Shown here piece after piece: positions 515-60,608 of a DNA stretch of 64,000 nt (positions within the stretch are counted from its first letter, which is position 1; each line of letters starts with the position of its first letter). The DNA is from an uncultured Gammaproteobacteria bacterium (lineage in GTDB: Bacteria; Pseudomonadota; Gammaproteobacteria; Steroidobacterales; Rariloculaceae), in assembly GCA_963805435.1 (NCBI GenBank), contig CAWDUG010000010.1, positions 111,176 through 175,175 of the forward strand, written 5' to 3'. Position numbers and translations under genes: made by a program. The notes beneath the pieces are model-generated. The model was not told where the DNA came from and did not search any database. It worked only from the letters and a program-made list of their open reading frames with translations.

Positions 515-3500
515 CTAGGCTCGGATTTTTCGGACGTTCGAGCGTACGGGCAGCTCGGAGACCGGCTGCGGCACCGCGATGAAGAAGCCCTGCGCGAATG
601 CGACCCCGAGCTCGCCGAGCCGCTTCATCACGTCGCGACTCTCGACTCGCTCCGCGATCGCCTCGATTTTGAACGCTTTCGCCATGCGCGCGATCGATTC
701 GACCACGCACTCGTCGGCGCCGTCGCGCAGCACGTTGCGGACGAACTGCCCGTCGATCTTCACGTAGTCGACCGGCAGGTTCTTGAGATACGTCAGCGAC
801 GACAGGCCGGTGCCGAAGTCGTCGAGCGAGAACCGGCAGCCGCGGGCCTTCAGCGCACGCATGAACGTGACGACCTGGCCCAGGTTCGCGATTGCCGCGG
901 TCTCCGTGATCTCGAAGCACAGAGCGCCGGGCGGGATGCCCGCGGCCGTCAGCTCGTCGAGCACGAAATCGAGGAACCGAGCATCGTTCAGCGTCGTCCC
1001 GGACAGGTTGATCGCCAGCGTGTACGGCGGCGTACCGGGCTCGCCACGGAACGCGAGCGTCTCGAGCGTGTGGCTGATGACCCAGCGATCGAGCATCGGC
1101 ATCAGGTTGTAGCGTTCGGCCGCGGGAATGAACGCCGTCGGCACGACGAGCTGGCCGCGCTCGTCCCGCATGCGTAACAGCAGCTCATAGTGGGGCCACG
1201 TGTCGCTGCCGGGCCCGATCGGCACGATCGGCTGGTAGTAGAGCTCGAAGCGCTCCTCCTCGAGCGCGCGATTGATCCGCGCGACCCACTGCATCTCCTG
1301 ATGGCGCTCCGCGGCGTCGCCCTCTTCGTAGACGTGGATACGGTTGCGACCGAGATCCTTCGCCACGTAGCACGCGACGTCTGCGGCGCTCATGAGCGCT
1401 CCAACGCTCTCGCTCGACGCTTGCACCGGCACGATGCCGATGCTGACACCGACCTGTAGCGCGTTGTCGCGCCAGGCGAAGCGGAAGGCGGAGATCGCCT
1501 CGCGCAGACCTTCGGCGATCTGCCCGGCGACGGCCATCGTGCAATCCGGCAGCAGTACCGCGAACTCGTCGCCACCGAGGCGAGCGAGCGCGCCGCTCTT
1601 CGGCACGCGTTGGCGCAGCACGTCGGCGAGCTGGCGCAACAGCAGGTCGCCGGCGCCGTGGCCGCACGTGTCGTTCACGACCTTGAACTGGTCGAGGTCC
1701 ATGTATAGCAACGCCCCGCTCCGCCCGGGCTCGTTGTGCACCGTGGCGAGGCCCGTGCCGAGCCGCTCCTCGAATTCGCGGCGGTTGATGAAGCCCGTCA
1801 ACGCGTCGTGGCTCGCAAAGTAGGCGAGCTTGCGATGCAGCTGGCGTTCCTGGCTCACGTCGTGGAATACCATGACCGCACCGACGATCTGGCCGCCGCG
1901 ATCCTGAATCGGCGCCGCGGAATCCTGGATCGCGACGCTCGAGCCGTCGCGAGCCGCGATCACGACGTTGCCGGCGAGCGCCACGACACGCCCTTCGTGC
2001 AGGCAACGCAATACGGGGTTCTGCACGGACTCGCCGGTGATCTCGTCCGTGAGCTTGATCAGTGTCTCGATCGGTAGGCCGCGCGCCTCGCGACTGTCCC
2101 AGCCGGTCAGCTGCTCCGCAACCGGGTTCAAATAGTCCACGTTACCCTGCGCGTCAGTCGTGACCACGGCGTCACCGATCGACTGCAGCGTAACCTGCGC
2201 GCGCTCCTTCTCGTTGAACAGGGCGCGCTCGGCCGCCTTCCGCTGTGTGATATCCGTGATCGTGCCTTCGAAGTACAGCGCGCGACCTTCGGCATCGACC
2301 ACGAGCCGCGAATTCTCCATCACCACGATGGCGCGCCCACTGCGAGTCCGCAGACGATACTCGTAGTTGCGCACACGACCGTAAGACTTCAACTCGGCAA
2401 TCAGTCGCTCCCGCTCCTTCGAATCGACGAAGAGCTCCGCCATGTTGAGGCGGCCGAGCTCATGCGCGTCCTCGTAGCCGAGCATCTGCACGAGCGCCGG
2501 ATTCACGGACAGCAGCTCTCCATCGGGTTTGGCCTGATAGACGCCGTCGACGACATTGTCGAACAACGCGCGAAACCGCGCTTCGCTGTCGCGCAGCGCG
2601 GTTTCGTCCTGCTTGCGTCGGATTGCGATACCGGCGAGCTGCGTGAGGCGCGTGATCAGATCGATCTCTTCCGTATTGGGGCCGCGCGCCGAATCGAAGT
2701 AGATCGCGAGCGTGCCGTGAATGCGGTCACCGGCCGTGACGATCGGCGTGGAGCAGCAGGCGCGGATGCCGGCGCCTAGCAGTTCGCCGCCGAGCACGCC
2801 GCACAACGAATCGACCGCGACGTCACGAACGACAACCTGCCTGCCCAGCGACGCGGCCGCGCCGCAGGATCCATGTCGCAGGCCGACCACCATTTTCGCC
2901 AACAGATCGGTGATGCCCTTGGGTAACCCCGTCGCGGCCGCGAGCCTGAGCTCTGCGCCACGATCGTCGAGCAACTGGACCGCCGCGCCCACCGCCGGAT
3001 GCAGTTGTTCCACGAGCCGCACGACCGCCTGCAACGTGCGCTCGAGCGGCGCATTCGCGGCGATCAGCTCGAGCACGCGGCGTTCGCCGTATGCGAGCGT
3101 GTCGGCGCGCCGTCGCGCTGCAATGTCGATGATGCTCGCGCGGATCAGGCGGTGCTTCGACGACGGCAGCCGGATGAACCGCACCTCGCACGGAATGTCC
3201 TGACCTGCAGCGTCGCGATGCAACCATTCGAAGACGGGGCGGCCGCCTTTCAATGCGCGCTCGATGTAACCCCTGTTGAGGCCTGCCGAAAGCAGCCCAT
3301 CGCTCTGGAACTCGGGGCTCAGTGTCTCCGGGCCGACGCTCAGCAATTCGTCGCGCGGCAAACCGAACAGTCGAACGGCATTGTCGTTGATGTCCACGAA
3401 ACGGTTGCGGTCGACGTCGAGCACGACGATGGCTTCGGGCGCGTTCTCGACCAGCGCACGGTAGCGTGCTTCGCTCTCGCGCAGTGCCTGTTCGTCCTGA

Positions 3501-3970
3501 AGTCGCTCCGTAACGTCGCGCATGCACACGACGAAATAGCTGTCGCGGGCCAAACCGGCGCGGCTCACGCTGACCTCCACCGTGAGCGACTGACCGTCGT
3601 TGCGCCGCGCCTCGATCAACGCCGGCGTGACATCGACGAACGTATCGCCCACACGATCGGCGAGCGCCTCGAGCGCTGGACCCGCCGGTGCAAGCTGCGG
3701 AATGAACTCGCTCAGCGCGCGCCCGACGACGGCATCGATCGTCACGGCGAGCACGCGTGCCGCCGCGGCATTCGCCCCGAGCACGACGCCGTCGCGGCTT
3801 ACGGTAACGATGGGGTCTTTGACGTTGTCGAGAATCGCGGGCAAGGGGTCGGCCGCACCGGGGCGGCCCGGTCGCGACGCGTCGTCCCGCAGAACTCGTT
3901 GCAGTTCGTCGCGAACGGACGGGCCGGCCAGCGCTTCGGCAATCCTGCGTCTCAGGCGTTCCTTCGCCAT
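515..3970 (-). CDS. PAS/GAF sensor diguanylate cyclase-phosphodiesterase (GGDEF-EAL)
   Basis: Several PAS/PAC segments, a GAF-like region, DLDQFKVVNDTCGH...ARLGGDEF, YELLLR (EAL variant), EITET, DDFGTG and VKIDG. Confidence 0.93.
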   Translation of the reverse strand: MAKERLRRRIAEALAGPSVRDELQRVLRDDASRPGRPGAADPLPAILDNVKDPIVTVSRDGVVLGANAAAARVLAVTIDAVVGRALSEFIPQLAPAGPALEALADRVGDTFVDVTPALIEARRNDGQSLTVEVSVSRAGLARDSYFVVCMRDVTERLQDEQALRESEARYRALVENAPEAIVVLDVDRNRFVDINDNAVRLFGLPRDELLSVGPETLSPEFQSDGLLSAGLNRGYIERALKGGRPVFEWLHRDAAGQDIPCEVRFIRLPSSKHRLIRASIIDIAARRRADTLAYGERRVLELIAANAPLERTLQAVVRLVEQLHPAVGAAVQLLDDRGAELRLAAATGLPKGITDLLAKMVVGLRHGSCGAAASLGRQVVVRDVAVDSLCGVLGGELLGAGIRACCSTPIVTAGDRIHGTLAIYFDSARGPNTEEIDLITRLTQLAGIAIRRKQDETALRDSEARFRALFDNVVDGVYQAKPDGELLSVNPALVQMLGYEDAHELGRLNMAELFVDSKERERLIAELKSYGRVRNYEYRLRTRSGRAIVVMENSRLVVDAEGRALYFEGTITDITQRKAAERALFNEKERAQVTLQSIGDAVVTTDAQGNVDYLNPVAEQLTGWDSREARGLPIETLIKLTDEITGESVQNPVLRCLHEGRVVALAGNVVIAARDGSSVAIQDSAAPIQDRGGQIVGAVMVFHDVSQERQLHRKLAYFASHDALTGFINRREFEERLGTGLATVHNEPGRSGALLYMDLDQFKVVNDTCGHGAGDLLLRQLADVLRQRVPKSGALARLGGDEFAVLLPDCTMAVAGQIAEGLREAISAFRFAWRDNALQVGVSIGIVPVQASSESVGALMSAADVACYVAKDLGRNRIHVYEEGDAAERHQEMQWVARINRALEEERFELYYQPIVPIGPGSDTWPHYELLLRMRDERGQLVVPTAFIPAAERYNLMPMLDRWVISHTLETLAFRGEPGTPPYTLAINLSGTTLNDARFLDFVLDELTAAGIPPGALCFEITETAAIANLGQVVTFMRALKARGCRFSLDDFGTGLSSLTYLKNLPVDYVKIDGQFVRNVLRDGADECVVESIARMAKAFKIEAIAERVESRDVMKRLGELGVAFAQGFFIAVPQPVSELPVRSNVRKIRA

Positions 3971-16082: not shown

Positions 16083-16119
16083 GGCGTGCGGGATTTGAAA
16101 GTGATGGTCAGACAGGTGC

Positions 16120-17223: not shown

Positions 17224-17226
17224 TTG

Positions 17227-17252: not shown

Positions 17253-17277
17253 TTGAGGTCGCGACGCAGGACATACG

Positions 17278-17764: not shown

Positions 17765-17775
17765 CCGAAAAAATG

Positions 17776-17851: not shown

Positions 17852-17884
17852 GGGTTAGCGTCTCTTGCGACGATACGCGGGAGT

Positions 17885-17960
<76 letters not shown>

Positions 17961-17981
17961 ACGTACTTTCTCCGGCTGCGC

Positions 17982-18010
17982 AGTCTAGGGACCACGCGCA
18001 GGTCGGTCAA
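17982..18010 (-). promoter_or_regulatory. Sigma-70 promoter of the tRNA operon
   Basis: Minus strand TTGACC-17 bp-TAGACT followed by a GC-rich discriminator (gcgcagcc). Confidence 0.7.
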
Positions 18011-30883: not shown

Positions 30884-31931
30884 TTACCGCCCAACGCTTG
30901 TATCGACCCTTTCAAGCCAAATTTCGCGCCAGTAAGGGTACATGGCTCTAGGACAAAGCATCCTGCATTGACTGTAGCGGGCTTGGCAAACAACTGAGTC
31001 GAGGATGATGCAGGGCGTCTTCATCTCCATCATCTTGCCGGTCTGCTCGCTAATCAGTTTGGTGACCCTCCTGGCACCTTGTACGTTCCACCGCAATAGG
31101 GCACCAGCTCTGCATCCCAAAACATGCCGCGATTGCGATTTCCGTCGTGACTGTCCCCAAGATGTCTTCGTGCGGTCTCACCCTGACCAGCTCGCCGGGC
31201 TGGAGATTCAAAGTCACGGCGCGAGTCGGCTGTCCCTCAGGGATCCGCCCGGGGGTTCGGGGCCAGTTGCTGCCCCCCCAAAACCAACAAAGCCTATTGT
31301 ATAGCCACCTCATGGCAGGACCAATTCCAATTCCGGCTTGCTTAAATGGTAGTAGGACGAGTAGGCCAAACCGGCGCAAAGTTGCTTCACCGTGACGTTG
31401 CCGGACGTGAAGTCTTCGACATACTGGCGAAGGTCCCACCACTTTAGCGGAGCGCTGCCCTTTTGAATCTCCGTAGCCTGACAGAAATAGCGCGGGCTGC
31501 CGCCTGCAGCGTCGGTTCCATGAGTCCGCCCCAGCAAGACGTCTTCGGTGCAATTCCGCGGACGCATATCGATCTCTGGAGTTCACTTGTGGGGCCAAGT
31601 GATTGCCTGGATGCTCGGTCGCGACTGGCTTTAGCCACGCTTCTTCCAGATAACCGTGCACCCGGCTTGGCACCCGCCGTGGGCCGAACCGTCGCACCGC
31701 GTCTGAAGAAGAACTGCATCCTGATCCTGCGGCTCAGATAAGGGTACTTCGTCGTGTAGTCACAGCTCTTGTGTGCGCTCTTATAAGACACGAAATCGCT
31801 GTCCACAAAACCGAAACATCTCGGGCATGAAGAGCATGCCCTCCAAACACCCGTCGGATCGAGCGTTCGAAGGATTTCGTTCTTTGCTTCTGACCTCGAC
31901 CCAACTGCCCGGTCGAAAACCTGGCGCTCAT
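30884..31931 (-). CDS. Cys-rich protein with two tandem homologous domains (multiple frameshifts)
   Basis: Fragments read across frames: ...GMLFMPEM...CG...AHKSCD...RCDGSAHGGCQAGC...W...WLKPV and LQPGELVRVR...PYCGG...CIIL...VC...C...CPRAMYPYWREIWLERV. Confidence 0.6.
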
Positions 31932-31945
31932 GTTTCGTCCCCAGT

Positions 31946-33395
31946 TCAGCTGCGCAGAAGGCCCAACGCGCGAAATACGTCCAAAAAGAACTGTCGCTGG
32001 CGCTGCCTCAAAAGAAGCATTCCACCGTAGGCGAACATCAGAACAGTCGCCTGGACTGGTAAGCGGACTGTCGGCGAAAGATGCTGCAACCTGTACCGAC
32101 GACATAGGCGAGCGCCACGGACACGATTCCAGCGACAACGGGAGGCGCAAAGCTGTTCGGAACAGCTCGGCTGGAGAAATCACTGTACCCCTTACAGCCC
32201 ACCATACCGCCGGACCGATCCAGGCCAACATCACAAGTGAATACGCACGCGCAATCCAAACGGGCCCAAAGGGCAAGGCGAGGCCATAGGCCAGGATTGT
32301 TACAGGGGCAATGACTATGGACATCCAAAGAGCGCGTCGAGCCATCCCCAATGAGTAGAGGAACCATCCCAGCGGGTTGACGATGGCAAAGGCGAGAATG
32401 GTCGGCGCAAGCCAGCGGAATATGGGGACGGTTGCCTCCCACTTTTGGCCTAGGAGTACTGCGATCAGATCAGTGGCCAGGAGCCCGCAAGCAATTGTGA
32501 TCGGGACAGTGACCGCCAGGACAAGGGCATAGCCCTTGAGAAAATAACTCTTCAGCCGATTCGGATCGTTTTGAACTCTCGACAGCCCGGAGAAAGCGAC
32601 CTCACCAGCGGCCGAATTGAGGTTGTCTATTGGGATACTTACCAGCTGATACGCGCGACCATAGATGCCCAGCGCTTCAACCCCCCAATACCGTCCGATC
32701 AACATTTTGTCGACGTTGTTGGTCAGGTATACGAAGAGGCTGTTCATTGTTAATAGTCCACCGAACTTCAGGAGCGAACGCACATCCGAGCCCCGTTGAG
32801 GTTTGCCCGGAATCCAACGAGAAGCAATCCAGCAGCCAACCGTTGTACCCACAGGTAGTACGAGCGTCATCGCGACCAGTGACCAATATCTTGCGCCGGC
32901 CAGAGCGGTAACGATTGCTGCAAGACCCGCAGCGACCAACGAAACCGTGTTGATCATCGCGAGCGCAGTGAACCTCATTTCCCGCTGTAAGAGAGCACCG
33001 TGTTGAATGCCCGCAGAGTTCAGAACGAAGCCCAACGAGAGTGCCGCTGTCAGTTCGAAAAGCTTTGGCTCTCGGTACCAGGCAGCAATGGCCGGCGCCG
33101 CTATCAGTCCGACGATCGCCAACCCGCACCCGACAAGAACATTGATCCAGAAGAGTGTCGAGGATTGAGCCTCGGTGATGGTTTCCTTCTGAACCGCCGC
33201 AGCCGAAAGGCCGAAGTCGCGAAAGAGGGCGAGCACGCCCGTAAAAGCGGTCACCATGCCGACCAAACCGAAGTCGTCGGGGCTCAACAGTCGCGCAAGG
33301 ATGATGAGCGTCACAATGCGGACCGCGAAATTCGCCCCCTGAGCGGCGATCCGGGCTACACCGCCGCGAAGAGCCTTATCTCTCAGACCCTCCAT
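31946..33395 (-). CDS. wzx: Wzx/WzxC-like polysaccharide flippase (frameshifts in the 3' end)
   Basis: ILARLLSPDDFGLVGM, DFGLSAAAVQ, STLFWIN, DKMLIGR..G...LGIYGRAY, FSGLSRVQ, VLLGQKW. A plausible C-terminus FFLDVFRALG ends at TGA 31946. Confidence 0.85.
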
Positions 33396-33930
33396 TTGCC
33401 GTCTGTATCGCGTAGAGCTCTCTCTAGCATTGACGTGATAGAACGGCCTGCTCGAAGAGGACCCATCGATCGTACGGTTACGCCCTCGCCGTGCTCGCAC
33501 AAGACAGCATCCTGATTCCGATCAGCGGCGGTGCCGGCCTCCTCCACCCCAGCATCCTTCATTCGCAAGTTCGTGATGGCTATCACCGTCTGTGTTATCT
33601 CAGCTGCGGTCAGTCTGGCCCCGAAAAGATTTCATGCCGCGTACTGTAGATTCTCCTTGAGCCAGGCGGCGGGCGCACTAACCCTATCCCAGAAATGGAA
33701 TCCCAGTCGCAGTTTCCATCCAAGCACAGGCGATACCAGACCGAGTGTCGTGAGCGTGTGAATGCCGATCGCCTTTATCTCCCCTATCCCTCCGTTTTGA
33801 GTGCGAACAGTGCCAGCTCGTCGGTGAGTCTTCGATCGCTTCGTCGCTGCCGCCCCCCAGGCGTGCGAGAAACGCCGGAGCACCAACTGCAGTTCTACCG
33901 GCCACCAACGCTCGGGATGACGGGAGTGGA

Positions 33931-40200: not shown

Positions 40201-40345
40201 AGCGGAGCGTGGGTGTTCGCGATCCGGCACGATGGCCTGGGGCTGGGGGCTTGATGATTGGTATCCCGAGGGAGCCGTGGATAAGGTTGATTCTCGAATC
40301 CAGAAGACCACGGCAAACATTCTATCTAGGTTCCTCGGCCCCTAA
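34279..40345 (+). CDS. Giant secreted LamG-(FN3)8-LamG-(FN3)3 protein with a C-terminal N,N-dimethylformamidase beta-subunit-like domain
   Basis: Signal peptide, two LamG, 11 FN3 with a CQGVAC loop, and a C-terminal domain with ENQQPG, IKGYAS, YRMGWY, TYQAYN, VSFDRP, HDEYWS, GYEAD. A frameshift near 40220 places the true end (GTMAWGWGLD...TANIL) at 40345. Local indels also occur at about 35035-35080. Confidence 0.85.
35011..37390 (+). repeat. Eight tandem near-identical 300-bp FN3 repeats
   Basis: Units start at 35011, 35305, 35605, 35905, 36205, 36505, 36805 and 37105. Units 2-8 differ at only about two visible positions. Confidence 0.95.
38041..38925 (+). repeat. Three tandem 297-bp FN3 repeats
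   Basis: Units start at about 38041, 38338 and 38635 and share the core of the 300-bp units. Confidence 0.9.
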
Positions 40346-48725: not shown

Positions 48726-49989
48726 TCAGCAAAGAGGCAGCACGTTTCTGATATGCCACGCGTGCAATTTGGCAACGCGATTCCACGAGTAGCGTTCGTT
48801 CGCGTAGCGCATGATCGTGGCGCGCCGCTCATGCAGATTCTTCCAGAGGTCGCTTGCGAAGTACGACGTGATTGCGTCGTACAGCGCATCGGAATCGTGT
48901 CCCCGGCGCGACAAAGCCCGTCTCTCCTTCGACGACATCTTCCCTTAGCGACCCGACGTCCGTCGCTACTACGGGTAGACCGAAGCTATAGGACAGAAAA
49001 GGCACGCCACTCTGAAATATCTCCGTATAAGGGAGCACTAGCACATCCGCGGCTTTGAAATACACTTCTACGCTCGTGTCCGCTATGTGTTCGATGTGTC
49101 CGGATAACGCCCCCGTTTATCGTAGACAGTGCTGCCTCGATTCGATTCCAGTAGCCCTCAGCCCCTTTCTTCACTTTTCCAGCAATCAACAGGACGAACT
49201 CCGGATCCGTGGCTAACCGCTTAGCCGCGGCCGCGACAAGAGATTCCAGTCCTTTATACGGAGCGATCTGCCCGAAAAACAGCGCGACTCTGTTCGATTG
49301 TGACAAACCAAGTCGCTGTCGCGCCTCCGTCGAAGTGAGGGCGGTGTTGGGGAGTGTATTGTTGATACCGAACGGTATCACGCCGACTTATCGCCCGAAA
49401 CGGAGAAGCTCGCGCACAGCTCTGCCTTCATTTTCTCCGTGTGCACGAATATATGATCCGACAGCCGATACTGGATCGTGAGTGAAAAGCGGTTCAACCA
49501 GTTGTCGCGTCCGTCGCGAGCCGCGGCGTTGACGTTGTGAGCAGTAAATACGATCCGGCGACCACACAACCGGTAATAGGCCATGAGCAAAGTTCGATCG
49601 AAAATCTCGAACTTGTTGTTCCAAAGGATGTGGAACAAACGCGGTCGCGCCCTTACCGAGTAGAGCATCAGACGCGCGTAGTAGCGGGACAGGCGCATGA
49701 CTTTTTCGAACGCCCCCGCACTCTCGGTTTGATCCCCGCGCAAGTTCAGGAATCGAATTAATGGGTTAGTACGAAACTCCGGGGCATCAAGCTTATCGCT
49801 GCCGATGAACTCCACGCAGATTCCACTGCCCGCAAGTGCAGTCGCCAGACCCAGAGCATACGAGCGGTCGTCCCCACCCGTTAGCAGGGCCACAGTGAAA
49901 TCGGCAGTAGGCGCGCGCGCGCCGTCGCCAGCGACAGCGCCCTCCAAACGGGGTATAGCTCGTGGACGTCGGCCTAACGCGAGTGTCAT
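48726..49989 (-). CDS. GT4 family glycosyltransferase, multiple frameshifts
   Basis: LLTGGDDRSY, FTAHNVN, FFGQIAPYKGLE, ADVLVLPY..IFQSGV, GLPVVATDVGSL, YSW. Confidence 0.8.
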
Positions 49990-50889
49990 CTGGTCCCGCT
50001 CGACCTATCGCCTTGTGCGAGGCGATGAAGGATAGCACTCGCGACCTGCTTGAGCGTGATCACCGTTGTCGCTCTAGGATCGAGCTCGCGACTATAGAAG
50101 TGTTCGCCCAGAAGTGGCGACACAAGCTTGGTCATCAACCCGTAGTCGTAGATTTCCCAGGGGCTTGTGCAATTGAAAATTGTGACGCACTGAACTCCTG
50201 CAGCTAACGCCAGATGCATTGGCAAGCTGTCACCGCCTACCACGCATCGGTGCTGACTGACGTCACCGAAATGCTCGAGAAGGGACGCCCTACGGGGCAA
50301 CACGTTCACTACAAGCCCTTCTGCACAAGCGCCGTCTTCAGTTCCCCGTAGTGCGCCCAGTTCTTCATTGGCCAGACCGGCCCCGCGACGGCGCGATGGC
50401 GACATCGCCGGAAAGATCGGTCCGGCTAGGCATTGGCAACAGATTATTTTTCTCCCGAAAAACGCCAACCCAGACCCGCGTATATCAATTCCTGGTACGA
50501 GGCACGGTTCTCATATTTCAACGCGTCCGCCTTTCGTCGCCCATATGTGCTAATCAGACTCAGGTCGAACCACCGCTTCGCATTCCCGTGTAAGCCATGC
50601 CGCCATCAGGAGTCATGTACGCACCGAACAATTGACGATGCTGTACACGACGCGCGAAGTCAGCAACGGCAGCGTCGTCTTCTAGATTGATAAGAAGATC
50701 GTAGTGGTCGTCCGTTACGGACGCGCGATCGTCCCAGGCGACGCAGTGCACGTCTCGGTCGAGACCCTTCAGTAGCACCGTATTCGTGGACGCGGTTACC
50801 CACGTGATACTGCCCGCGAGGTGATGGAGCAGGGTTGTCGTTCGAACCACATCTCCTGTCGCGTTCAGCTTGAGAATAAGCGTCTTCAC
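49986..50889 (-). CDS. GT9 (ADP-heptose heptosyltransferase-like) glycosyltransferase, frameshifted
   Basis: LILKLNATGDVVRTT, ITWVT, YDLLINLE, and a C-terminal GDSLPMHLALA...TIF (GT9 DS..MHLA motif). Confidence 0.75.
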
Positions 50890-52717
50890 CTGCCAACCTC
50901 CTTCTGAGGGGGATTCGCGTCAAAGACCCGACTCCAACCGCCCACAAGCATGCGATCCACTGCTTCCAGACTCAGTACGGAACTGATCTCCTGAACGTAG
51001 TTGCGACGGCCTCGTCGGTGTTCTTGCGCAACGGTGTCCAGAAATGGTCTGTTCCAATACGGCTGCGCTCGGACTCTTGCGCTGCCCAGTACATCGGCGA
51101 CGTATTCAGCAAGTTCGCCGCGAAACCAGTTGCGATACGGCAAAAACTTGTGCAAACCCAGCAAACCCGTCTTCGACAGTGCGCCAAACAATGGAGCAAA
51201 CGGTGCACCGATGCCAGACAGCCCTTCCTTGTCTAAGTAGTCGAGCTTGAACGTGACTTCACAAAACACTCGTCGCGCGGCCGTAGCGAGCGATGACGCT
51301 CCGAGACTAATCCCCCGATCGGTTGGAATGCGCGCGAGCTCAGGATTGCAGGCCGCAATCAGCCGCAGGGCGGCATTCGGTGAGGTCCGCGCCGCCAGCG
51401 GCGCCCGATAGGCGAGTTTTACAATTGTATTGTCGAGATACGGAGTCCGAAACACTACCATCGAGCGCCCCGCCGCCAGGGATCCGAACAGATGTAGAGG
51501 AACCTCACGAAACGCCGCCTGCGTCAGAGGATGTGGCTCGACATCGCGAACCAGAGCGCGATCTAGCAAAGGGCGAAACACGGGCTCGATTAGCTCCGAT
51601 GCAAATTGTCTGGGCTTGAGCGTCGACATGCTACGGAGGATTTCGCTACCGAAGTTTCCCGTCAGCCGAATCGGCGCCAGCGTCCTCCCGAGAGCGGTTA
51701 GGAAGATCTCATGAGCAGTCAAAGCACCCGCACAGCCGTCGGTCACGAAAACTGTACGATCCACGTAGGTGTCGAAGCTTTTCGTGAACTCTCCGCTCAA
51801 GCGCAACGTATGATGATTCAGCCCAATCGTCTGCGCGACGCGCCTTCCCACGCGAACGTCGAGCGTCTCTCCTGTAGCGCCCGCAAACGTATAACAAACG
51901 GGTCTTGGCCCTTCCGAAGGAAGACACGACACGACCATTCGCGTATCTAGGCCACCCGTGATCGACACGCCGACGGGCTGTACGGCTTGTGCGTACACGG
52001 GAAGCACGGACCGCGCAGCGTCTACAAACTGCGCCTCGAATTCTGGCTCGCCCAAGGCGGTTAGTTCTTCCCACCTCTCGGCTGGAAATATAGCTTCTTG
52101 ACGAGCGGCCGATCGCGCTCCATGAACCACACGGAGCCGCCCGGCACGAGCCGTATATCGCGGAACAGACTACGCCCGTCGCAGATAGAACCGTAGGCGA
52201 GGTATTGGGCGACGCCCTGCTCGTCCAGATGTCTAGTCGCTGGGATTGTCGCAAGCAGCGCTTTGGCCTCGCTTGCGAAGCAGACAGCGTTCACATGCTT
52301 AGAAAAATAGAGCCTTTCTGCCGCGTAACGATCATTAAAGACGAGAGCGCTCTTGCGCCTTCGATCGATGAGGACGCCGCTGAACAGCCCGTTCAACTCT
52401 GAAACAAAGCCCTCGCCTCGCGCGGCATACTTCGCTACGACATCCACTTCCGCGCCAACGACTCCGCGGTCACTCGCGCCAGGAAAACATTCCCCCGAAA
52501 GCGCCAGCGATATCTCACTATCTCCAGTAGACTCTGATTGGCGCGATGCGTAGGAGCCCTCGTGTGCCACCCAACCCACGTATATGCCGAGATCAGAATC
52601 GAAGTGCACGCCCGAGACATAGTCTGGCCTATGCATCATGGTCCCGATCATGGTTCTGATCAGATCCAGATACTCGTCTGGTGGCCCGCGGCCGATGATT
52701 CCCACAATTCCGGGCAT
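50886..52717 (-). CDS. Asparagine synthetase-like protein lacking the catalytic Cys1 (frameshift near 52090)
   Basis: Starts MPGIVGII; LNGLF, FNDRY, FASEAKALL; synthetase half SITGGLDTR, TGNFGSE, RTPYLDN. Confidence 0.8.
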
Positions 52718-52795
52718 GCTAAAGAGTGAACTGCTCGTGGGCTGTGCGGAGCTGGCAGCACGGGGATCCACGGCCGCGCCGCGGCGATCCCTCTG

Positions 52796-53755
52796 TCATT
52801 CCGATCCCGCCCTGTGCCAAGCCGCGCGCCAACTCTTCAATTTGCGTTTGATCCCAGCGGGAAGCATGGCAGCCAACCCGCGGTACGCTCCCGTACGCAG
52901 AGCAATCCGGCCTTTCAACGTGAGTGGTACGTAGTAACGCGGCAGAACAACTCGCTCAAACCCGCAGCGCCGTTTGAACTCTGCCAACGAGTCGTCGCCC
53001 CAGTACCAGTAAACGAGGTACTCGAATCCGTTCTTCGCACATACCTCGACAGCCTTCGCGATGAGCGCGTTGTTCGGCGCCTTGTCCCGATGATGTAGGC
53101 TCGACAGTATCTGACCGAGAAGCGCGAACCGGCCCGCGTCCCCCAGCATGACGAGGCCGACCATCTCTTCACCGATGTACGCACCGATCATGCGCTCGCG
53201 ATGCACGTAACGCGCAAACTGGCGTTTTACGGTTGCGAAGTCTTTACCGTAGTGCCAAAACTTGCGGCCCTGGCGGATTGGAGCTTCGTTGAAGATCGCC
53301 GTCATACCGCGGATGAACTCATCATCGTAGGCGGTTTCCTTGATCGATAGACCCGCCTTTTCAGACTTTCGGATCGTCGTTCGGATCCGGGACTTGATCT
53401 GTTGATTCCACCAATCCTCATACGAGGTAATCTTCAGCGCCGCGATCTCCTCCCAGTCTTGGTGGTACGCATACTTGGGCTGCGTATCGGGCAGTCGCTG
53501 CCAAAAGGTAAACAGATCTACGCCGAGACCCCGACTCGCCCGCAGAGCTTCGATCACCGCCTCGGGGTCGTTGACATCTTCGTACCACTCGTCCTCTAGA
53601 CGAGCCACATTGAGGACTCCGCCACTCAGTGCGAATGACTGCCCGCCTATCTCCACGCAGCGAACCTGAGCAGGCTGACCCTGGATGAGGGTATCCCGCA
53701 TGACGACCGATCCGGCCGCGATACTCTGCTCCACGCTACTGGACATCTGCTTCAT
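52796..53755 (-). CDS. GNAT/FemAB-like protein
   Basis: YEDWW...IRTTIRKSEKAGL, FNEAPIRQG..FWHY, NNALIAKAVE, LAEFKRRCGF, PRYY. Confidence 0.7.
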   Translation of the reverse strand: MKQMSSSVEQSIAAGSVVMRDTLIQGQPAQVRCVEIGGQSFALSGGVLNVARLEDEWYEDVNDPEAVIEALRASRGLGVDLFTFWQRLPDTQPKYAYHQDWEEIAALKITSYEDWWNQQIKSRIRTTIRKSEKAGLSIKETAYDDEFIRGMTAIFNEAPIRQGRKFWHYGKDFATVKRQFARYVHRERMIGAYIGEEMVGLVMLGDAGRFALLGQILSSLHHRDKAPNNALIAKAVEVCAKNGFEYLVYWYWGDDSLAEFKRRCGFERVVLPRYYVPLTLKGRIALRTGAYRGLAAMLPAGIKRKLKSWRAAWHRAGSE

Positions 53756-54641
53756 CCCGCCGCATCGCCTTGGATCGGCCACCAATCAGTTGCTTGAGGC
53801 GCGCCATCTGTTCTCCTCGATGGAAGCGCATGAGCTCCGCCGACACGGGGCGTTCCACACGCTGCAGCCAACACCAAAGATAGCCGGCGAGCAGCGCGAG
53901 TCCACCCACCACATATGGTCTCTGCGCCATCTGAAAGGCGCTCCTGAATAGCTGCCATAGCGGGTGACCGCCCAAGAAGTAGTCTTTCTTGCCGTAGTGA
54001 AACCGCGCGCCCAGCTCGGTCGTGCCGGCAGTACCCATCTTGCGGTGATGATTAAACTCCCGCTCGGAAAAAGAAAGCGTGATCCAACCCTTCATCCGTG
54101 CCGTGGTTACGGCAACCCAGTCGATGCCCCCGCCCTTGATCGGCACGTAGCCACCGATGTCGGCGAAGCACTCGCGGCGGAACATCTGGCATTGGCCGTT
54201 CACGTGCTGCACATTGATATAGCTGTCCTTGAAAGAGTGAAAGTCGCCCTCGACGTAGTGCGTCCCGGCCACGCCAAGCTTCGGCATCGAGGCGAACTTG
54301 CCTAGCAGATACTCGAAATAGTCTGGCCCGAAAGACACGTCACCATCGATGTTGCCAATCACGTCGAACTTAAGTTCCTTAACACGCGCGTACCCGGCAT
54401 TGAATGCATTGACCTTGGCTGCGAAATGACGCTCCTTGCGCGGAGGCAAGCGCACGAGTTCGAGCCAAGGGTGCGCCGGGAGATACTTCTCGACGATGGC
54501 GTCGGTGTCGTCCGTAGAGCCGTCGCTGACGATAATCCAACGTTTTGGCGGCACCGTCTGCGCAATCACAGATTTGATTGTCAGCTCGAGGTAATCCGCT
54601 TCGTTCCGTGCCGGCGTTATCAACACGTATTCCAGTGTCAT
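53736..54641 (-). CDS. GT2 family glycosyltransferase
   Basis: YVLITPARNEA, WIIVSDGSTDDT, NIDGD. Confidence 0.9.
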   Translation of the reverse strand: MTLEYVLITPARNEADYLELTIKSVIAQTVPPKRWIIVSDGSTDDTDAIVEKYLPAHPWLELVRLPPRKERHFAAKVNAFNAGYARVKELKFDVIGNIDGDVSFGPDYFEYLLGKFASMPKLGVAGTHYVEGDFHSFKDSYINVQHVNGQCQMFRRECFADIGGYVPIKGGGIDWVAVTTARMKGWITLSFSEREFNHHRKMGTAGTTELGARFHYGKKDYFLGGHPLWQLFRSAFQMAQRPYVVGGLALLAGYLWCWLQRVERPVSAELMRFHRGEQMARLKQLIGGRSKAMRRDEADVQ

Positions 54642-54651
54642 ATCTTTTGAC

Positions 54652-56547
54652 CTACGCCGCCGCGCGACCGCTGACATCTTGGTTCGAGCGTAGCCACTGC
54701 TCGAACACAATGAGACTGAAGAGCATTTTGTGATTATCGTGCCGGCCTGCGCGGTGCTCCTCGAGCATGCGCTGAACTACACGCGGCTCCAGGTACTGAT
54801 ACATCAGCGAGCCACCATCCACCAAGCACGCACCGAGGCCCTCGGTGAGGGACTCGTGGAACCATTGATCAACCACGTTCACTGCGAAACCTCGCTTCTT
54901 GCGTCGCAGGATCTCCGGCGGTAGGAACTTCTCGCATACCTTCCGATGCAACCACTTCCGTTGGCCGAAACGCACCTTGAAGTGAGCAGGCAAGCGTTGG
55001 GCGTACTCAATAACTTCCTTGTCGAGATACGGCACGCGCACTTCAAGACCATGAGCCATCGAGAGCTTATCCGAGAACATGAGGAGTTCGTCGGGCAGCG
55101 ACGAACGAACCTCCAGCACCTGGAAGCCGCCGAGTTCGTCGGTGTCCTGCATTTCGTACTCGAGGTCGCCCCACAGATCGACGATGACGTCGCCTGCGCC
55201 CTCGGGCAATAGGCTGCGCTTAAATAGGCTGTCCACGACGTCGCCAGGCATGATCGAGAACACGTTCTGGTAACGCTGCATTCGATCGTCGACGTTGAGC
55301 GAGTACACTCCGCGCTTGAGTGCCTCATTCCGAGATAGGCGTCCGATTCCGCTCGCGAGGCTTTGCCTGAGCCAGCCGGGCATGCCGCGCCAGAGAGCCC
55401 CGTACTGCACGCCGAGATGCCGAGTGTAGCCGCCAAAGAGCTCGTCGGGTCCCTGGCCGACCAGAGCGACCTTCACGTCCTGCCGGGCTCGTTGGCAAAC
55501 AAAATACATAGGTACGATGGAAGAGGATGCGATCGGCTCCTCGAGCGTCGCCACTATGCCGGGCAGCGCGCGCTCGAACATTGCTTTGTCGAGGTGCACG
55601 GACTCATTGCTAGCGCCGAAGATACGAGCACTGGCGGCAGCGTCGGCGAGTTCGTCGTCGTCGTACGCGGACTTTCCGTAGCCGACAGTGTAGGTGGGCC
55701 ACTTATCACCGTTGAGACCCATGAGCCCGAGGAGGAGCCCAGAATCCACGCCGCCACTCAGTAGAAGACCGACCGGCACATCGCTTAGCAAGTGGCGTTT
55801 CAGCGCGCGTTTGTAGATGTCGAGCAGTTCCTCGATCGCCTCGGCATCGGATTTCGGCGGCGTGAAAGGACGCGGCTGAAAACGATGCCAGCGTTCCACG
55901 CGAAAATCGCCATTCTCGAACACTGCCATGGTTCCAGGCGCGAGCTTGCGTACGCCTTCATACAGCGTAAGGGGCGATGGCGTGTACCGATACCGCAAGA
56001 ACAGATTGAGCGCGGTCATGTCCACGTTCGGGCGTCCTTGCGACGCCGCAAGCACAGCGCGCAGCTCCGACCCGAAAACGACCGTACCGTCGTCTACCTT
56101 ATAGTAGACGAGCTTTATACCCGCCGAATCGCGCGCGAGTGTCAGCCGTTTGCTCCGCTCGTCCCAGAGCGCGACGCCGAACATGCCGTTCAGGTGATTG
56201 AAAACGTCGAGCCCCCACTGCTTGTAGCCGTGGATGATGACTTCAGTGTCGGAGCGGGTCCGAAACACGTGACCGAAGCCCTCGAGCTCGCGGCGCAGTT
56301 CAGGAAAATTGTAGATCTCGCCGTTGAAGGCGACCCAGACCGTTTCCTCGACATCGGACATTGGCTGATGGCCGCCGGAGAGATCGATAATGGATAGGCG
56401 CCGAAAACCAAGCCCCAATCCGCCAGACAGGTAATACCCCTCGTCATCCGGACCACGATGGGCGATTGCATCCGCCATGGCCTTGATGCGCTCTCTGGAG
56501 ACGGGCGCGTAATCCCGGAAGTTGTACTGACCGCAAATGCCGCACAT
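54652..56547 (-). CDS. asnB: Asparagine synthase (glutamine-hydrolysing)-like amidotransferase
   Basis: MCGICG, HRGPDD, RRLSIID, FNGEIYN, SDTEV, LSGGVDS, GQGPDELFGGY, EVRVPYLD, KKRGF. Confidence 0.9.
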   Translation of the reverse strand: MCGICGQYNFRDYAPVSRERIKAMADAIAHRGPDDEGYYLSGGLGLGFRRLSIIDLSGGHQPMSDVEETVWVAFNGEIYNFPELRRELEGFGHVFRTRSDTEVIIHGYKQWGLDVFNHLNGMFGVALWDERSKRLTLARDSAGIKLVYYKVDDGTVVFGSELRAVLAASQGRPNVDMTALNLFLRYRYTPSPLTLYEGVRKLAPGTMAVFENGDFRVERWHRFQPRPFTPPKSDAEAIEELLDIYKRALKRHLLSDVPVGLLLSGGVDSGLLLGLMGLNGDKWPTYTVGYGKSAYDDDELADAAASARIFGASNESVHLDKAMFERALPGIVATLEEPIASSSIVPMYFVCQRARQDVKVALVGQGPDELFGGYTRHLGVQYGALWRGMPGWLRQSLASGIGRLSRNEALKRGVYSLNVDDRMQRYQNVFSIMPGDVVDSLFKRSLLPEGAGDVIVDLWGDLEYEMQDTDELGGFQVLEVRSSLPDELLMFSDKLSMAHGLEVRVPYLDKEVIEYAQRLPAHFKVRFGQRKWLHRKVCEKFLPPEILRRKKRGFAVNVVDQWFHESLTEGLGACLVDGGSLMYQYLEPRVVQRMLEEHRAGRHDNHKMLFSLIVFEQWLRSNQDVSGRAAA

Positions 56548-56567: not shown

Positions 56568-57914
56568 TCAGTGGACAGGGCTGCGTTCGGCGGTTTCGGG
56601 GTTCGCGGGCAATGACAGGCAGAGGCTGCGAAACAGCTGCGCCTGCGCCCAGCGATGCATCGGAACGTTATCCCAGCTGAATATAAGCTGCCTCGATCTG
56701 AACGAGCCGTCCCGCTTCTGCCAATTCTCGATAACGTCGCTAAGAGTCGATTCGAGACGCTGATCCAGCATGGGGAACCTACCCCGCAACAAGCCGCCGA
56801 TATTGATGCATTCGGCGTAATCGTAGAGTTCTCGACGATACACGGTGAGACGAGGAGCGCTGGCGAACGGCTTCGGCAGCCCAGTCTCGTCGAACAGGTT
56901 ATGCACGTAGTATTCGACTCCAGCGCCGATGGCTCGCGTGCAACCCGTGTGAGGCGTCAGCTGTTCGATTTTCGACAACGCCTTGAGCACAAAGCAGGTG
57001 TGGAAGTGGTCGACGAAGTCTCTTACGCCGTCAGCGGCGTAGAACCAGGAGCCATTGGGCTGCTGGCAGCCAAGTACAAAGTTCAAATTGCGTACCGCTA
57101 CGGAACGATAGTCTTCGCGACGGAACTGCTGTGAAGCGGCCATGAGAAGGAACGCGCGGTAAGCGCTGGCATTGACTACCACACCCTGCGCATCGAAAGG
57201 GTTGTAGCCCGCCGCAGCAGAATCTGCCGAGACTTCGCGATCCTTGATGTCGAGAAACGCGTGCTCGGCGATCGACTGCATGATTTCGAGCCAGCGCGGA
57301 TCTCCATCGATCTGATACACCGCCAAGAATGCCTCGTAGACGTACGGAGTCGTGGTGATGAGGGGCGTATCCTTCGCCATCACGCCGGTACGCGTCACCC
57401 AGTCGAATGGGTAACCCCAGCAGTAGCGTTCATATCCGGGACAACGCGACTGCACCAGGGCTTCGAGAAATTCCACGGCCTTATCGTGGTAGCGCGTCTC
57501 ACCCGTCACCATCGCCAGCCGCGCAAACCCCATCGCGTAGTGCGCATCAGCGATTGGAAATCTCAATTTCGAGCCGAAAAGACGACGCGCCGATGGCAAA
57601 AATGCCTCGCTAAGGATCATCGGCGCCACGGCGAGCGTGCCAAGGGCGCGATGGCGGTAGTAAAGCGATTTGGCCCGTCCGCCTAGGGGGCCAGAAAAAT
57701 AGCTCTGGTGGTCGTACGAGGTACTCCCGTAAGACTCCAGCCAATCAACGAATCGGTCGATGGCTGCAGGCAGCCTGGCGAGGTATCGATCGTCCAACTC
57801 TTTGTTCCGTCTGTCAGTAGCGCTGACCGATGCTATCAGGAGAAGGCAGTCACTCGCCGTGACAGCGGCCACAGACGTAGTTTCCCGTATCCGGGCATGA
57901 CAACGAGAGCGCAC
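56568..57914 (-). CDS. Conserved EPS-locus protein, probable (alpha/alpha)6-barrel fold
   Basis: WGYPFDW, P.ITTT, V.NASA, QQPNGSW.Y, VDHFHTCF, QKRDGSF and RWAQAQ repeats resemble prenyltransferase/six-hairpin repeats. Start uncertain. Confidence 0.6.
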   Translation of the reverse strand: MRSRCHARIRETTSVAAVTASDCLLLIASVSATDRRNKELDDRYLARLPAAIDRFVDWLESYGSTSYDHQSYFSGPLGGRAKSLYYRHRALGTLAVAPMILSEAFLPSARRLFGSKLRFPIADAHYAMGFARLAMVTGETRYHDKAVEFLEALVQSRCPGYERYCWGYPFDWVTRTGVMAKDTPLITTTPYVYEAFLAVYQIDGDPRWLEIMQSIAEHAFLDIKDREVSADSAAAGYNPFDAQGVVVNASAYRAFLLMAASQQFRREDYRSVAVRNLNFVLGCQQPNGSWFYAADGVRDFVDHFHTCFVLKALSKIEQLTPHTGCTRAIGAGVEYYVHNLFDETGLPKPFASAPRLTVYRRELYDYAECINIGGLLRGRFPMLDQRLESTLSDVIENWQKRDGSFRSRQLIFSWDNVPMHRWAQAQLFRSLCLSLPANPETAERSPVH

Positions 57915-57956: not shown

Positions 57957-59132
57957 TCAGGTCGCCCCATCGCGCCGCAGCACGACTTTCACCGTCTTCA
58001 GCAGGATCTTGATGTCGAGCCACAAAGAGCAGTTACGGATATAGCGCAGGTCCAAACGCACCATTTCGTCGAAGGAAGTGGCGCTTCGGCCTTCCACCTG
58101 CCACAGCCCCGTAATCCCGGGCCGGATCTGTAGCATGCGTCGCAAATGCCACGACTGATACTTCTCGGCTTCGTAAGGCAGCGGTGGCCGCGGTCCGACG
58201 AGGCTCATGTCGCCCTTCAGCACATTGAACAGCTGCGGCAGTTCATCGAGGCTAGTCTTGCGAATGATTCGCCCAACGCCGGTGACACGCGGGTCCGCCG
58301 TCATCTTGTAGAGCGGGCGATCCTGGTCGCCCTGATTGACTTGATCCAATTTCCCCTCGATGAGGTTGGCGACGTATTCGCGGTGTATGCGGTCGTCCGC
58401 ATCGGTTCTCATGGAGCGAAACTTATAGAAAACGAAAGGCACGCTACCCTTGCCAAGGCGCCTCTGCTTGAAGATCACCGATCCCGGTGAGGACAGCGCG
58501 ATTGCGATGACAATCGCAATCATGATGGGCGAGAACACCAGGATCGCGGTGAGCGAGCCCAAAATATCCAAGCCCCGTTTGACGCACGCGCCCGTCCGAC
58601 TAAGCTCCGTCTTCTCATCGAACAGGTACGCTAAGGTGTCAGACACGTCGCGCGAGTCGCTCAACAGACTGTCGAAAAGGTGATCCGGGTACGTAGCGGA
58701 CGCGATCGAGATAGGCAGATGCGCCGTCCGCTTGACGACACTATTGATGAACGCCTCGACACCTTTCTCGTTTGTATGCGGGAGCAGTAACCCGAGACGG
58801 TCTTTGCCGACGTGGCCGAGCATATCCGTCTCGCGTTTGCCCTTGGCCAGCAGGCCTAGTATCTCGTCCAGCGACGCTACCCCGCCGCCGCGGTCAGTGT
58901 CTAGACGAACCAGAACGAGTGAGAGGGGAGACTTAGTGCGGTCCGTACGCCGCTTCTCGATCTGCAGCTGCTTCTCAAACTGCCGCAGCGAGAGTATTTC
59001 TGACTGGGGCTCGTCGTCTGCGGGCTGGGAGCTATTTGATCTGGAAGAACCAGGGCTTAGATCTCTCGTGCGACTCGGAACCTCGCGCAATCGCCCGGCC
59101 CCGGCCACTGGCTCGTTTGTTGCCTTCACCAT
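57957..59132 (-). CDS. Priming phosphoglycosyltransferase (sugar transferase) with an N-terminal degenerate GGDEF-like domain
   Basis: C-terminal [51 protein letters not shown]-terminal [19 protein letters not shown]...[22 protein letters not shown]...SIASATYP. Confidence 0.88.
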
Positions 59133-59570: not shown

Positions 59571-60536
59571 TTAGGCGGTAGCCACGTGTTCGCGCAGGTG
59601 TGCGTCAAAGTACGCTATCGTCCTGGCTAAACCCTCCTCCACCTCGACTGTTGGCTTCCAGCCGAGTCGTTCGCGGGCCATCGTAATGTCCGGCCGACGG
59701 CGTTTTGGATCATCCGCTGGAAGGTTCTTGTACACGAGCTTCGATTTCGAGTTGGCGAGACGCATGACGCGCTCCGCCAATTCCAACATCGTGAACTCAA
59801 CAGGGTTACCAAGATTTATCGGGCCGGTGACGTCGTCTGAAGTGTTCATCAACCGAATAAGACCGTCCACCAGATCGTCGACGTAGCAGAACGACCGGGT
59901 TTGCGAGCCATCGCCATAAATGGTGATGGGCTCACCCTTGAGCGCCTGAACAATGAAGTTCGAGACCACCCGACCGTCATTTGGATGCATGCGTGGGCCG
60001 TAAGTGTTGAAGATCCGTGCAACTTTTATCCGTAACCGCGCTTGACGATGGTAATCGAAGAAAAGCGTCTCTGCGCAACGCTTACCCTCATCGTAGCAAG
60101 CCCGCGGACCGAGTGGATTGACGTTTCCCCAATAACTCTCAACCTGAGGGTGAATTTCCGGATCACCATACACTTCGGACGTGGATGCTTGAAGAATGCG
60201 TGCCTTGACCCTCTTGGCCAGACCGAGCATGTTGATCGCACCATGTACGTTGACTTTCGTCGTCTGAATCGGATCGTTTTGATAGTGGATCGGCGACGCT
60301 GGGCACGCAAGGTTATAGATTTCATCCACCTCCACGTAGAGCGGAAAACACACGTCGTGCCGCATCGTCTCGAAGTTCGGGTTGTCGAGCAGGTGGGCAA
60401 TGTTTCGCTTGGAGCCGGTGTAGTAGTTGTCCACCAGCAAAACTTCGTGTTGCTCGGCAAGCAATCGCTCACATAGGTGTGAGCCGATGAAGCCAGCGCC
60501 GCCGGTGACTAAGATCCGGCGCCGATCGTTTTGCAT
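59571..60536 (-). CDS. UDP-glucuronate decarboxylase (UDP-xylose synthase)
   Basis: [75 protein letters not shown]. Confidence 0.94.
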
Positions 60537-60608
60537 ATCTGTACTCCCGTCATGTTTGTGTTCTCCAGGCCACCAAGGACCAGCCCAATCCACGGCGCGC
60601 GAAGCGCC

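Follow-up and report, generated by a model that had tools for sequence, protein, structure and literature searches.

A small monotopic phosphoglycosyl transferase carrying a degenerate GGDEF-fold domain that has lost the cyclase site and kept c-di-GMP I-site residues

The gene at positions 57957..59132 (minus strand) of the DNA studied here encodes a small monotopic phosphoglycosyl transferase (PGT) whose catalytic domain is preceded by a GGDEF fold that is dead as a cyclase and has kept the residues of the inhibitory site (I-site) at which such domains bind cyclic di-GMP (c-di-GMP). The DNA, referred to below as the window, is a stretch of 64,000 nucleotides from an uncultured Gammaproteobacteria bacterium (assembly GCA_963805435.1, contig CAWDUG010000010.1, positions 111,176 to 175,175). 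We regard this anatomy of the protein as practically certain. We also lean, with less assurance, towards the view that the N-terminal module is a c-di-GMP receptor that controls the PGT, binding and control both being deduced from sequence and fold. The features of the gene, all on the minus strand, are as follows.

57957..59132, minus strand: whole gene, small monotopic PGT with an N-terminal degenerate GGDEF-fold domain, 391 amino acids (translation, Pfam, NCBIfam, homologues)
59004..59132, minus strand: variable leader, residues 1-43, probably disordered (predicted local distance difference test, pLDDT, 24-29; poorly conserved and of variable length among 36 homologues)
58662..59000, minus strand: shortened GGDEF fold, residues 45-157, alpha0-beta1-alpha-beta2-beta3-alpha3-beta4-alpha4 (AlphaFold2 model, Foldseek, profile matches to WspR and GcbC)
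58938..58958, minus strand: EKRRTDR on helix alpha0, with E59, R62 and R65 near-invariant and R65 aligned with WspR R198 (alignments; PMC2270323, excerpts)
58824..58835, minus strand: RETD, the RxxD motif of the I-site (R100, D103), aligned with WspR R242/D245
58794..58808, minus strand: GKDRL at the degenerate position of the GG[DE]EF active-site hairpin (alignment to the GGEEF of WspR)
58683..58694, minus strand: TYPD, an invariant motif ending beta4 that is specific to the family and not a general GGDEF feature (alignments)
58491..58598, minus strand: long hydrophobic helix with a Ser-Pro break (VFSPIM), residues 179-214, likely a re-entrant membrane helix (AlphaFold2 helix; P202 invariant)
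57978..58580, minus strand: Bac_transf catalytic domain, residues 185-385 (PF02397, TIGR03025, fold match to PglC)
58242..58247, minus strand: D296-E297 in LDELPQ, presumed catalytic Asp-Glu dyad (invariant in 36/36)

A preliminary description of this DNA, made from the letters and a list of open reading frames (ORFs), had ascribed a GGDEF topology to the N-terminal region. The ORF, its coordinates and the strings quoted from it (ISIASATYP and GKDRL included) are all present in the translated sequence, and a nucleotide-cyclase fold was indeed seen in profile searches and in structure comparisons with Foldseek. The Pfam GGDEF profile (PF00990) matches with an E-value of 2.4e-4 and 21.3 bits, below its gathering score of 23.8, and its coverage is limited to profile positions 13-117 of 161. 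When the 36 homologues described below were turned into a profile and compared with the PDB sequences, WspR was retrieved with an E-value of 2.1e-7, together with GcbC and about 20 more diguanylate cyclases; an alignment confined to the N-domain (A2; 19 sequences, residues 51-150) yielded a profile that retrieved GcbC (2.4e-7) and WspR (8e-7). The AlphaFold2 model of the 391-amino-acid protein, built on the 36 homologues, has a mean pLDDT of 64 (about 80 for the N-domain) and a predicted template modelling (TM) score of 0.43. It contains helices at residues 49-66, 85-98, 122-135 and 151-157, and strands at residues 70-77, 104-109, 112-118 and 141-147. Every match listed by Foldseek for residues ~45-160 was a GGDEF-containing structure, among them WspR (9t28; E-value 1.3e-6, TM score on the target 0.61) and 3ign (root-mean-square deviation 2.1 Å over 121 columns). 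The clusters of the ESM Atlas nearest to the N-domain are either 'hypothetical' or GGDEF-like (0.89-0.91) and hence uninformative. Since the Pfam E-value, the profile matches and Foldseek agree, the assignment of the GGDEF fold holds.

What has become of the two functional sites of this fold can be read from a HMMER alignment to WspR, in which GKDRL falls on GGEEF, RETD on RSSD and GLLLPHT on AMVLPGT. The chain index of structure 3bre equals WspR numbering; hence, R100 corresponds to R242, D103 to D245 and R65 to R198. That RxxD lies exactly five residues before the degenerate GKDRL, as the preliminary description had pointed out, is borne out, and this is the canonical spacing in the WspR alignment. 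At the active site, R76 occupies the position of the metal-binding Asp, the first Asp of the DxD motif, and the loop following beta1 (DxFKxxND..GH..GD in cyclases) has lost 5+3 residues, so that the guanine-binding loop is deleted. We take the role of the first Asp as a metal ligand, and that of the Asn/Asp loop in guanine binding, to be those known from PleD. Judged by its sequence, the N-domain is not a cyclase and synthesis of c-di-GMP by it would be impossible, because it has no GG[DE]EF motif and no metal-binding Asp, and its guanine-binding loop is deleted. An active cyclase was consequently rejected, as was the occurrence of RxxD by chance, given that the motif is invariant and its register exact. 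In WspR, c-di-GMP in the I-site is held by R242 and by R198 from a neighboring GGDEF domain, and the R242A and R198A proteins are nucleotide-free on purification (PMC2270323, excerpts).

The remainder of the protein is an intact-looking PGT. An ATG at position 59132 opens the frame of 391 codons (translation of 57957-59132, minus strand); a longer frame (444 amino acids, TTG start at 59291) was rejected because the homologues begin at the ATG instead. PF02397 (Bac_transf) matches over its full length (E-value 1.2e-67, 227.4 bits against a cut-off of 27, profile positions 1-178 of 179), and TIGR03025, the model for exopolysaccharide biosynthesis polyprenyl glycosylphosphotransferases, scores 300.9 bits, just over its cut-off of 295.55. 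The sugar-specific NCBIfam equivalog models WbaP, WcaJ and EpsZ all stayed far under their cut-offs for the 391-amino-acid protein. With the C-terminal half of the AlphaFold2 model, Foldseek found PglC (8e37; E-value 1.9e-11, TM score on the target 0.77) and WbaP (8t53; E-value 6.5e-9). P202, D296 and E297 are invariant in the alignment of the 36 close homologues; we assume, from work on PglC, that the Ser-Pro break of helix 179-214 marks the re-entrant membrane helix and that D296-E297 is the Asp-Glu dyad of monotopic PGTs. The gene product, as its sequence indicates, is thus a small monotopic PGT with intact-looking catalytic motifs and ~180 extra N-terminal residues, which are cytoplasmic and lie on the same side as the catalytic domain. 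Its predicted reaction is the transfer of the first sugar-phosphate onto undecaprenyl phosphate.

A word-indexed search with residues 40-175 returned 36 proteins including the query (336-420 amino acids), all of them with Bac_transf. In the precomputed domain annotation, 35 of the 36 carry the label PF02397 only and a single one carries PF00990 as well. Eleven positions of the N-domain are invariant among these 36 close homologues: E59, R62, R65, S71, R100, D103, T120, T147, Y148, P149 and F153. To this set we added the results of an exhaustive phmmer search of 1.84 billion representatives with the N-domain, which found 206 relatives at E ≤ 0.001, 59 of them also at E ≤ 1e-10. The 149 new proteins among the best 150 of the 206 were scanned with Pfam and aligned. 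Of these, 44 have Bac_transf (one weakly), one has Glyco_tran_WecG (P0106), and 13, all at the weak end, are full-length GGDEF proteins of the ordinary kind; the other 91 have no partner domain and, being mostly shorter than 250 amino acids, may represent fragments or else modules that stand alone. Overall, this is a small family of mainly environmental proteins.

The preliminary description had named conservation of RxxD among homologous fusions as a check on its proposal, and the motif proved to be conserved in 36/36 close homologues. The same is seen in a broader sample, the 50 domains of 44 Bac_transf-fused representatives clustered at 50% identity, in which R100 is retained in 47/50 and D103 in 48/50. 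Conservation extends to the second arginine of the I-site, R65 (48/49), a residue whose conservation the preliminary description had not noted, and to R62 (47/49) and E59 (46/49). A canonical GG[DE]EF motif occurs in 0/36 close homologues and in 0/50 representative domains. The four commonest residues at the metal-Asp position of the latter are R (12), E (9), H (5) and Q (5), with no Asp among them. Over all 197 domains that the A2 hidden Markov model aligned from 185 proteins (the 36 close and 149 new ones), F52, E59, R62, R65, S71, R100, D103, T120, Y148 and P149 are conserved to at least 90%. Of the six domains without R or D, three are extra tandem copies, two belong to single-domain proteins and one is a copy within a true cyclase.

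The GGDEF domains of the same genome served as a control. PF00990 finds 32 matches there, of which 26 domains were compared; the six set aside were two matches without loci and four that were split or partial (L043, L046-L048). RxxD stands in register in 16/26 of these, which amounts to 16/21 of those with [GA]G[DE]EF and 0/5 of the degenerate ones. Arg at the R198-equivalent position is present in 11/26, the equivalents of R62 and E59 in 5/26 and 4/26, respectively, one row of this alignment being mis-registered. The GGDEF fold as such does not demand the RxxD and R65 residues, because ordinary domains of the same genome are often without them.

Several relatives carry the module in other arrangements. 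Five proteins (P0037, P0038, P0042, P0113, P0175) have two to three tandem dead GGDEF modules before one Bac_transf domain. RxxD is kept by the enzyme-proximal copy in four of these proteins and by the membrane-distal copy in the fifth, P0042; the outer copy of P0038 is without the motif. P0106 (532 amino acids) has two modules fused to a Glyco_tran_WecG (WecG/TagA/CpsF) transferase, which is not a PGT. The tandem copies (P0037, P0038, P0042, P0113) and the WecG-type fusion are what one would expect of a regulatory module that is portable and acts pairwise, and P0106 suggests a role for it at early lipid-linked glycan steps. P0066 (386 amino acids), in which the N-module and the first 48 Bac_transf positions are followed by a full ubiquitin-family domain (E-value 5.5e-21), is likely to be a chimera or a misassembly of metagenomic origin.

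How might such a module act? We propose that the N-domain acts as a c-di-GMP receptor that would read high c-di-GMP levels at its I-site, and that occupancy of this site would be relayed to the catalytic domain next to it, activation being the likeliest outcome, so that the entry of undecaprenyl phosphate into the pathway would be controlled post-translationally. In the most likely mode, a c-di-GMP dimer would bridge the RxxD motif of one N-domain to R65 of another, as in WspR and PleD, and would thereby bring together two enzymes or, in those relatives with two to three copies, two N-domains in tandem; alternatively, an intramolecular block might be released. We can only guess at the direction of the effect and at the mode of control. 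Ligand-bridged pairing is favored because the alpha0 arginine acts in trans in WspR and PleD and because relatives contain tandem modules; activation is guessed by analogy with PelD, BcsE and PssE. A complex prediction with two copies of residues 44-165 and two c-di-GMP molecules gave scores of 0.31, 0.28 and 0.26 against a mark of 0.42 and speaks neither for nor against such a pair. Of the interpretation given in the preliminary description, direct c-di-GMP gating of the first committed step, the GGDEF fold and the conserved RxxD have stood, and the gating itself stays a proposal. In its most specific form, this proposal has c-di-GMP directly switch the first committed step of a Wzx/Wzy-type pathway: an intercalated c-di-GMP dimer would bridge RxxD of one module to the alpha0 arginine of a second and so turn a small monotopic PGT on, by means of a portable module found also on a WecG/TagA-type second-step transferase; this form is tentative, and we hold it to be rather doubtful.

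Several observations weigh against a c-di-GMP receptor. The PF00990 match of the 391-amino-acid protein stays below the gathering score, and confidence in the structural model is moderate, for the N-domain as for the whole protein. The N-domain is shortened, both in the loop after beta1 and by the loss of beta5, and the geometry of the I-site pocket may differ because of this truncation. R135 on helix alpha3, the counterpart of PelD R402, is Arg in 29/36 close homologues and in 17/49 representative domains, and R402, the third I-site arginine of PelD, is one that PelD needs (review PMC8461298, excerpts). The conservation counts are partly circular, since the query used to find the relatives itself has these residues, and the ordinary cyclases at the weak end of the search also show them (13/14 domains from the 13 proteins). 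As to a switch by dimerization, small monotopic PGTs function as monomers (PMC12802240, excerpts).

A rival reading takes the N-domain for a GGDEF relic without nucleotide binding that serves as a scaffold, either for dimerization of the enzyme or for docking of a pathway protein such as a tyrosine kinase/co-polymerase or a glycosyltransferase, with the conserved Arg, Asp and Glu residues forming salt bridges or an interface. The catalytic site is lost, the third I-site arginine is poorly conserved, TYPD, S71 and T120 are strong family motifs without a known role in c-di-GMP binding, and E59, R62 and R65, one turn apart on one helix, could pair mutually or with D103. However, the residues that were kept are exactly those with which WspR binds c-di-GMP, and the fold does not need RxxD, as the degenerate GGDEF domains of the same genome are without it (0/5). 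We consider a scaffold of this kind unlikely, though to be reckoned with. We judge it improbable that the ligand is some other nucleotide, whether GTP in what remains of the active site (some GGDEF-EAL proteins bind it there), a cyclic dinucleotide other than c-di-GMP in the I-site, or UMP or a UDP-sugar in a feedback loop. I-site-like pockets can in principle accept other dinucleotides. A precedent exists in the cytoplasmic domain of unknown function (DUF) of WbaP, for which allosteric binding of UMP has been proposed (PMC10942596, excerpts). Nothing in the present protein points to another ligand, however, and GTP at the active site is unlikely because the guanine-binding loop and the metal-binding Asp are missing and the hairpin shows no conservation. 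We attach equally little probability to the idea that c-di-GMP binds but inhibits the enzyme, or merely localizes or stabilizes it, with high c-di-GMP favoring another polysaccharide. The I-site of cyclases is an inhibitory site, and at least two other Bac_transf genes of the genome compete for the same lipid carrier, but in the polysaccharide systems reviewed in PMC8461298 and PMC12802240 (excerpts of both) c-di-GMP receptors activate synthesis, an argument from precedent only.

Returning to the N-module as a c-di-GMP receptor, a close functional parallel is PelD of the Pel system of Pseudomonas aeruginosa, likewise a dead GGDEF domain with RxxD that acts as a cytoplasmic receptor on membrane-bound polysaccharide machinery (PMC8461298, excerpts). 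Unlike the present protein, PelD is a separate protein with a transmembrane-GAF-GGDEF organization, belongs to a synthase-dependent pathway and needs R402, whereas here domain and enzyme are joined directly, in a pathway of the lipid-carrier/Wzx type, and the R402-like arginine is only partly conserved. The Pfam profile PelD_GGDEF found no match in the 391-amino-acid protein and weak ones in a few relatives (P0096, E-value 2.7e-5). In BcsE of the cellulose system, too, the I-site of a dead GGDEF-like domain activates polysaccharide synthesis post-translationally (PMC8461298, excerpts), and Listeria PssE is a degenerate-GGDEF I-site receptor with the same effect (PMC4125290, excerpts), but both are separate proteins that act on processive synthases and neither is fused to a PGT. 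WspR, PleD and GcbC provide the best matches in sequence and fold, R65, R100 and D103 mapping to WspR R198, R242 and D245; they are, however, active cyclases with a domain of ~160 residues in which the I-site mediates product inhibition, whereas the present N-domain has ~110 residues, no active site and a fused transferase as its output.

Signal inputs at the priming step are known from other systems. In Myxococcus xanthus, the response regulator EpsW activates the initiating PGT EpsZ, so that a signaling domain controls the first enzyme of a Wzx/Wzy pathway post-translationally, but EpsW is a separate, phosphorylated receiver domain that promotes dimerization of a large monotopic PGT (PMC12802240, excerpts); here, the sensor is fused, of the GGDEF type, and sits on a small monotopic PGT. 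Tyrosine phosphorylation of CapM is another signal input at a priming PGT. The cytoplasmic DUF of WbaP is a proposed nucleotide-sensing domain on a monotopic PGT and could spare undecaprenyl phosphate (PMC10942596, excerpts), but it has another fold, responds to the reaction product UMP in a feedback mode and belongs to the large monotopic PGT architecture. Fusions of small monotopic PGTs with sugar-modifying or regulatory domains, receiver domains included, were catalogued by O'Toole, Imperiali and Allen (2021), as cited in PMC12802240 (excerpts). A full-text literature search that combined GGDEF with PGT terms, and whose coverage did not extend to that census, found no description of a GGDEF-PGT fusion. 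Degenerate-GGDEF I-site receptors are thus known as separate proteins (PelD, BcsE, PssE), and their direct fusion to a PGT appears to be new, pending the census of O'Toole et al. (2021).

The PGT gene sits within a long run of genes on the minus strand; the following features of the window were annotated.

59571..60593, minus strand: enzyme of the NAD-dependent sugar-nucleotide epimerase/dehydratase family, upstream gene (Epimerase and GDP_Man_Dehyd matches)
56568..57914, minus strand: alpha/alpha-toroid-like protein with weak likeness to GlcNAc 2-epimerase, downstream gene; it also follows the PGT gene in locus L051
54652..56556, minus strand: gene resembling asparagine synthase, with conserved synteny in L051 and a counterpart in genome G454
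53736..54710, minus strand: GT2 glycosyltransferase, syntenic in L051
47269..48386, minus strand: two adjacent ORFs with weak likeness to Wzy_C (O-antigen ligase/polymerase), a possible split Wzy (E-values 0.002 and 0.015, below cut-off)
31734..33500, minus strand: Wzx-type flippase (Polysacc_synt_3, E-value 2e-81), 24 kb from the PGT gene
515..3970, minus strand: PAS/GAF/PAS-GGDEF-EAL protein (domain matches)

Also upstream of the PGT gene are two GT2 genes and an amine-oxidase-like gene; the downstream side has more transferases as well as a second, apparently split gene resembling asparagine synthase. Genes for export lie ~30 kb (30-33 kb) from the PGT gene, beyond the end of the window, where 20 kb were searched. 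A Poly_export protein (E-value 2e-24), a GNVR protein (E-value 7.5e-6; 26.2 bits, just under the cut-off of 27.7) and a P-loop protein occupy 14168-17243 of locus L002, the segment that includes a TPR protein in addition spanning 14168-18446, 14-18 kb past the window end. The Wzx/Wzy setting assumed in the preliminary description is thus plausible, with Wzx and genes of the outer-membrane polysaccharide export (OPX) and polysaccharide co-polymerase (PCP) types found in this locus or in those of relatives; its Wzy part comes down to the weak match listed above. The intact-looking GGDEF-EAL enzyme reported at 0.5-4 kb is real and has a GGDEF motif and DDFGTG, but ELL replaces EAL. The RxxD position of this protein reads PKSG. 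It says little about a functional link to the PGT, because it lies 54 kb away, and adds little in a genome with at least 32 GGDEF matches; a c-di-GMP network as such is present in this organism (32 PF00990 matches). Rfam detected no c-di-GMP riboswitch in the whole window, two tRNAs being the only RNAs found, and a scan of the window for the sigma-54 consensus gave 28 matches against 28.3 expected, none of them upstream of the PGT gene.

Comparable settings were found for relatives: all four of the four loci examined are polysaccharide clusters, and Wzx lies near the fusion in 3/3 of the relatives' loci (G454, L050, L051). In G454, a genome of the same order whose locus is identical to L018, the fusion is followed directly by Wzx, GT4, GT2 and asparagine synthase genes. 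In L050, which also has export genes, Poly_export and a P-loop protein precede the fusion and Wzx starts 4.5 kb past the end of the fusion gene; a histidine kinase and a sigma-54 regulator are encoded upstream, beside the cluster. The gene order of L051 mirrors that of the window (PGT, toroid-like protein, asparagine synthase, GT2, GT9-like, GT4). Among the locus searches, one on genome contigs with the single N-domain yielded no relative among 307 pattern matches, one starting from relative P0025 recovered P0025 itself and one ordinary PGT, and the narrower alignment A3 found five loci on metagenome contigs.

The distribution of the family is patchy. A member was present at E ≤ 1e-14 in 2/201 genomes of an order-wide sample, the source genome included, and in 0/21 other genomes of the same taxonomic family, three of them of the same genus. 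A phylum-wide search at E ≤ 1e-8 returned 52/401 genomes, of which all but the source genome (151.7 bits) scored 51.5 bits or less; these matches we take, without individual checks, to be ordinary GGDEF proteins that are uninformative on the range of the family. The G+C content is 0.53-0.60 across the cluster, as compared with 0.63-0.68 at the left of the window. A phage-type integrase (16120-17223, plus strand) lies beside two tRNA genes (17779-17960, minus strand), and to the right of these the G+C content drops from ~0.68 to 0.53-0.62. Together with the patchy distribution of the fusion, this drop and the integrase and tRNA genes hint that the polysaccharide region was acquired horizontally.

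Some further features of the window and its genome deserve mention. Between two sigma-54 activator genes (7722-9116 and 10004-11419), next to a histidine kinase gene (5674-7149), lies the only exact match of the window to the sigma-54 promoter consensus TGGCAC-N5-TTGCW (9794-9809, minus strand), just upstream of an ORF of 175 amino acids (9227-9754); a kinase and a sigma-54 regulator also flank the cluster of L050. Amid the polysaccharide genes are two genes for very large proteins rich in fn3 and Laminin_G_3 domains (18435-21947, plus strand, 1170 amino acids; 34279-40254, plus strand, 1991 amino acids), the latter ending in a DMFA2_C domain. Several cluster genes appear split into adjacent ORFs: an asparagine synthase (414+236 amino acids; 50886-52771), the Wzy_C-like gene (215+157 amino acids; 47269-48386) and a GT4-like plus GT9-like pair (203+160 amino acids; 49378-50468). 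The genome is a draft (72% complete, 14 contigs), and these splits could be indel errors of the assembly or real pseudogenes. Two further Bac_transf genes are present in the genome (G000:C13:346845-347399 and G000:C10:226965-227485, the latter with an in-frame TGA); several pathways are hence expected to compete for the lipid carrier.

For polysaccharides made by synthase-dependent systems (cellulose, alginate, Pel and Pss, for example), post-translational control by c-di-GMP has been studied in depth. How Wzx/Wzy pathways are controlled post-translationally is understood only in part (PMC12802240, 2025, excerpts). A receptor fused to the priming enzyme would put the signal exactly at the point where a scarce lipid carrier is committed. 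Because 35 of the 36 family members are annotated as PF02397 only, hidden sensors on glycan enzymes may be under-counted. If the proposed switch is real, it would represent a general and so far unannotated route by which a second messenger rations undecaprenyl phosphate among glycan pathways.

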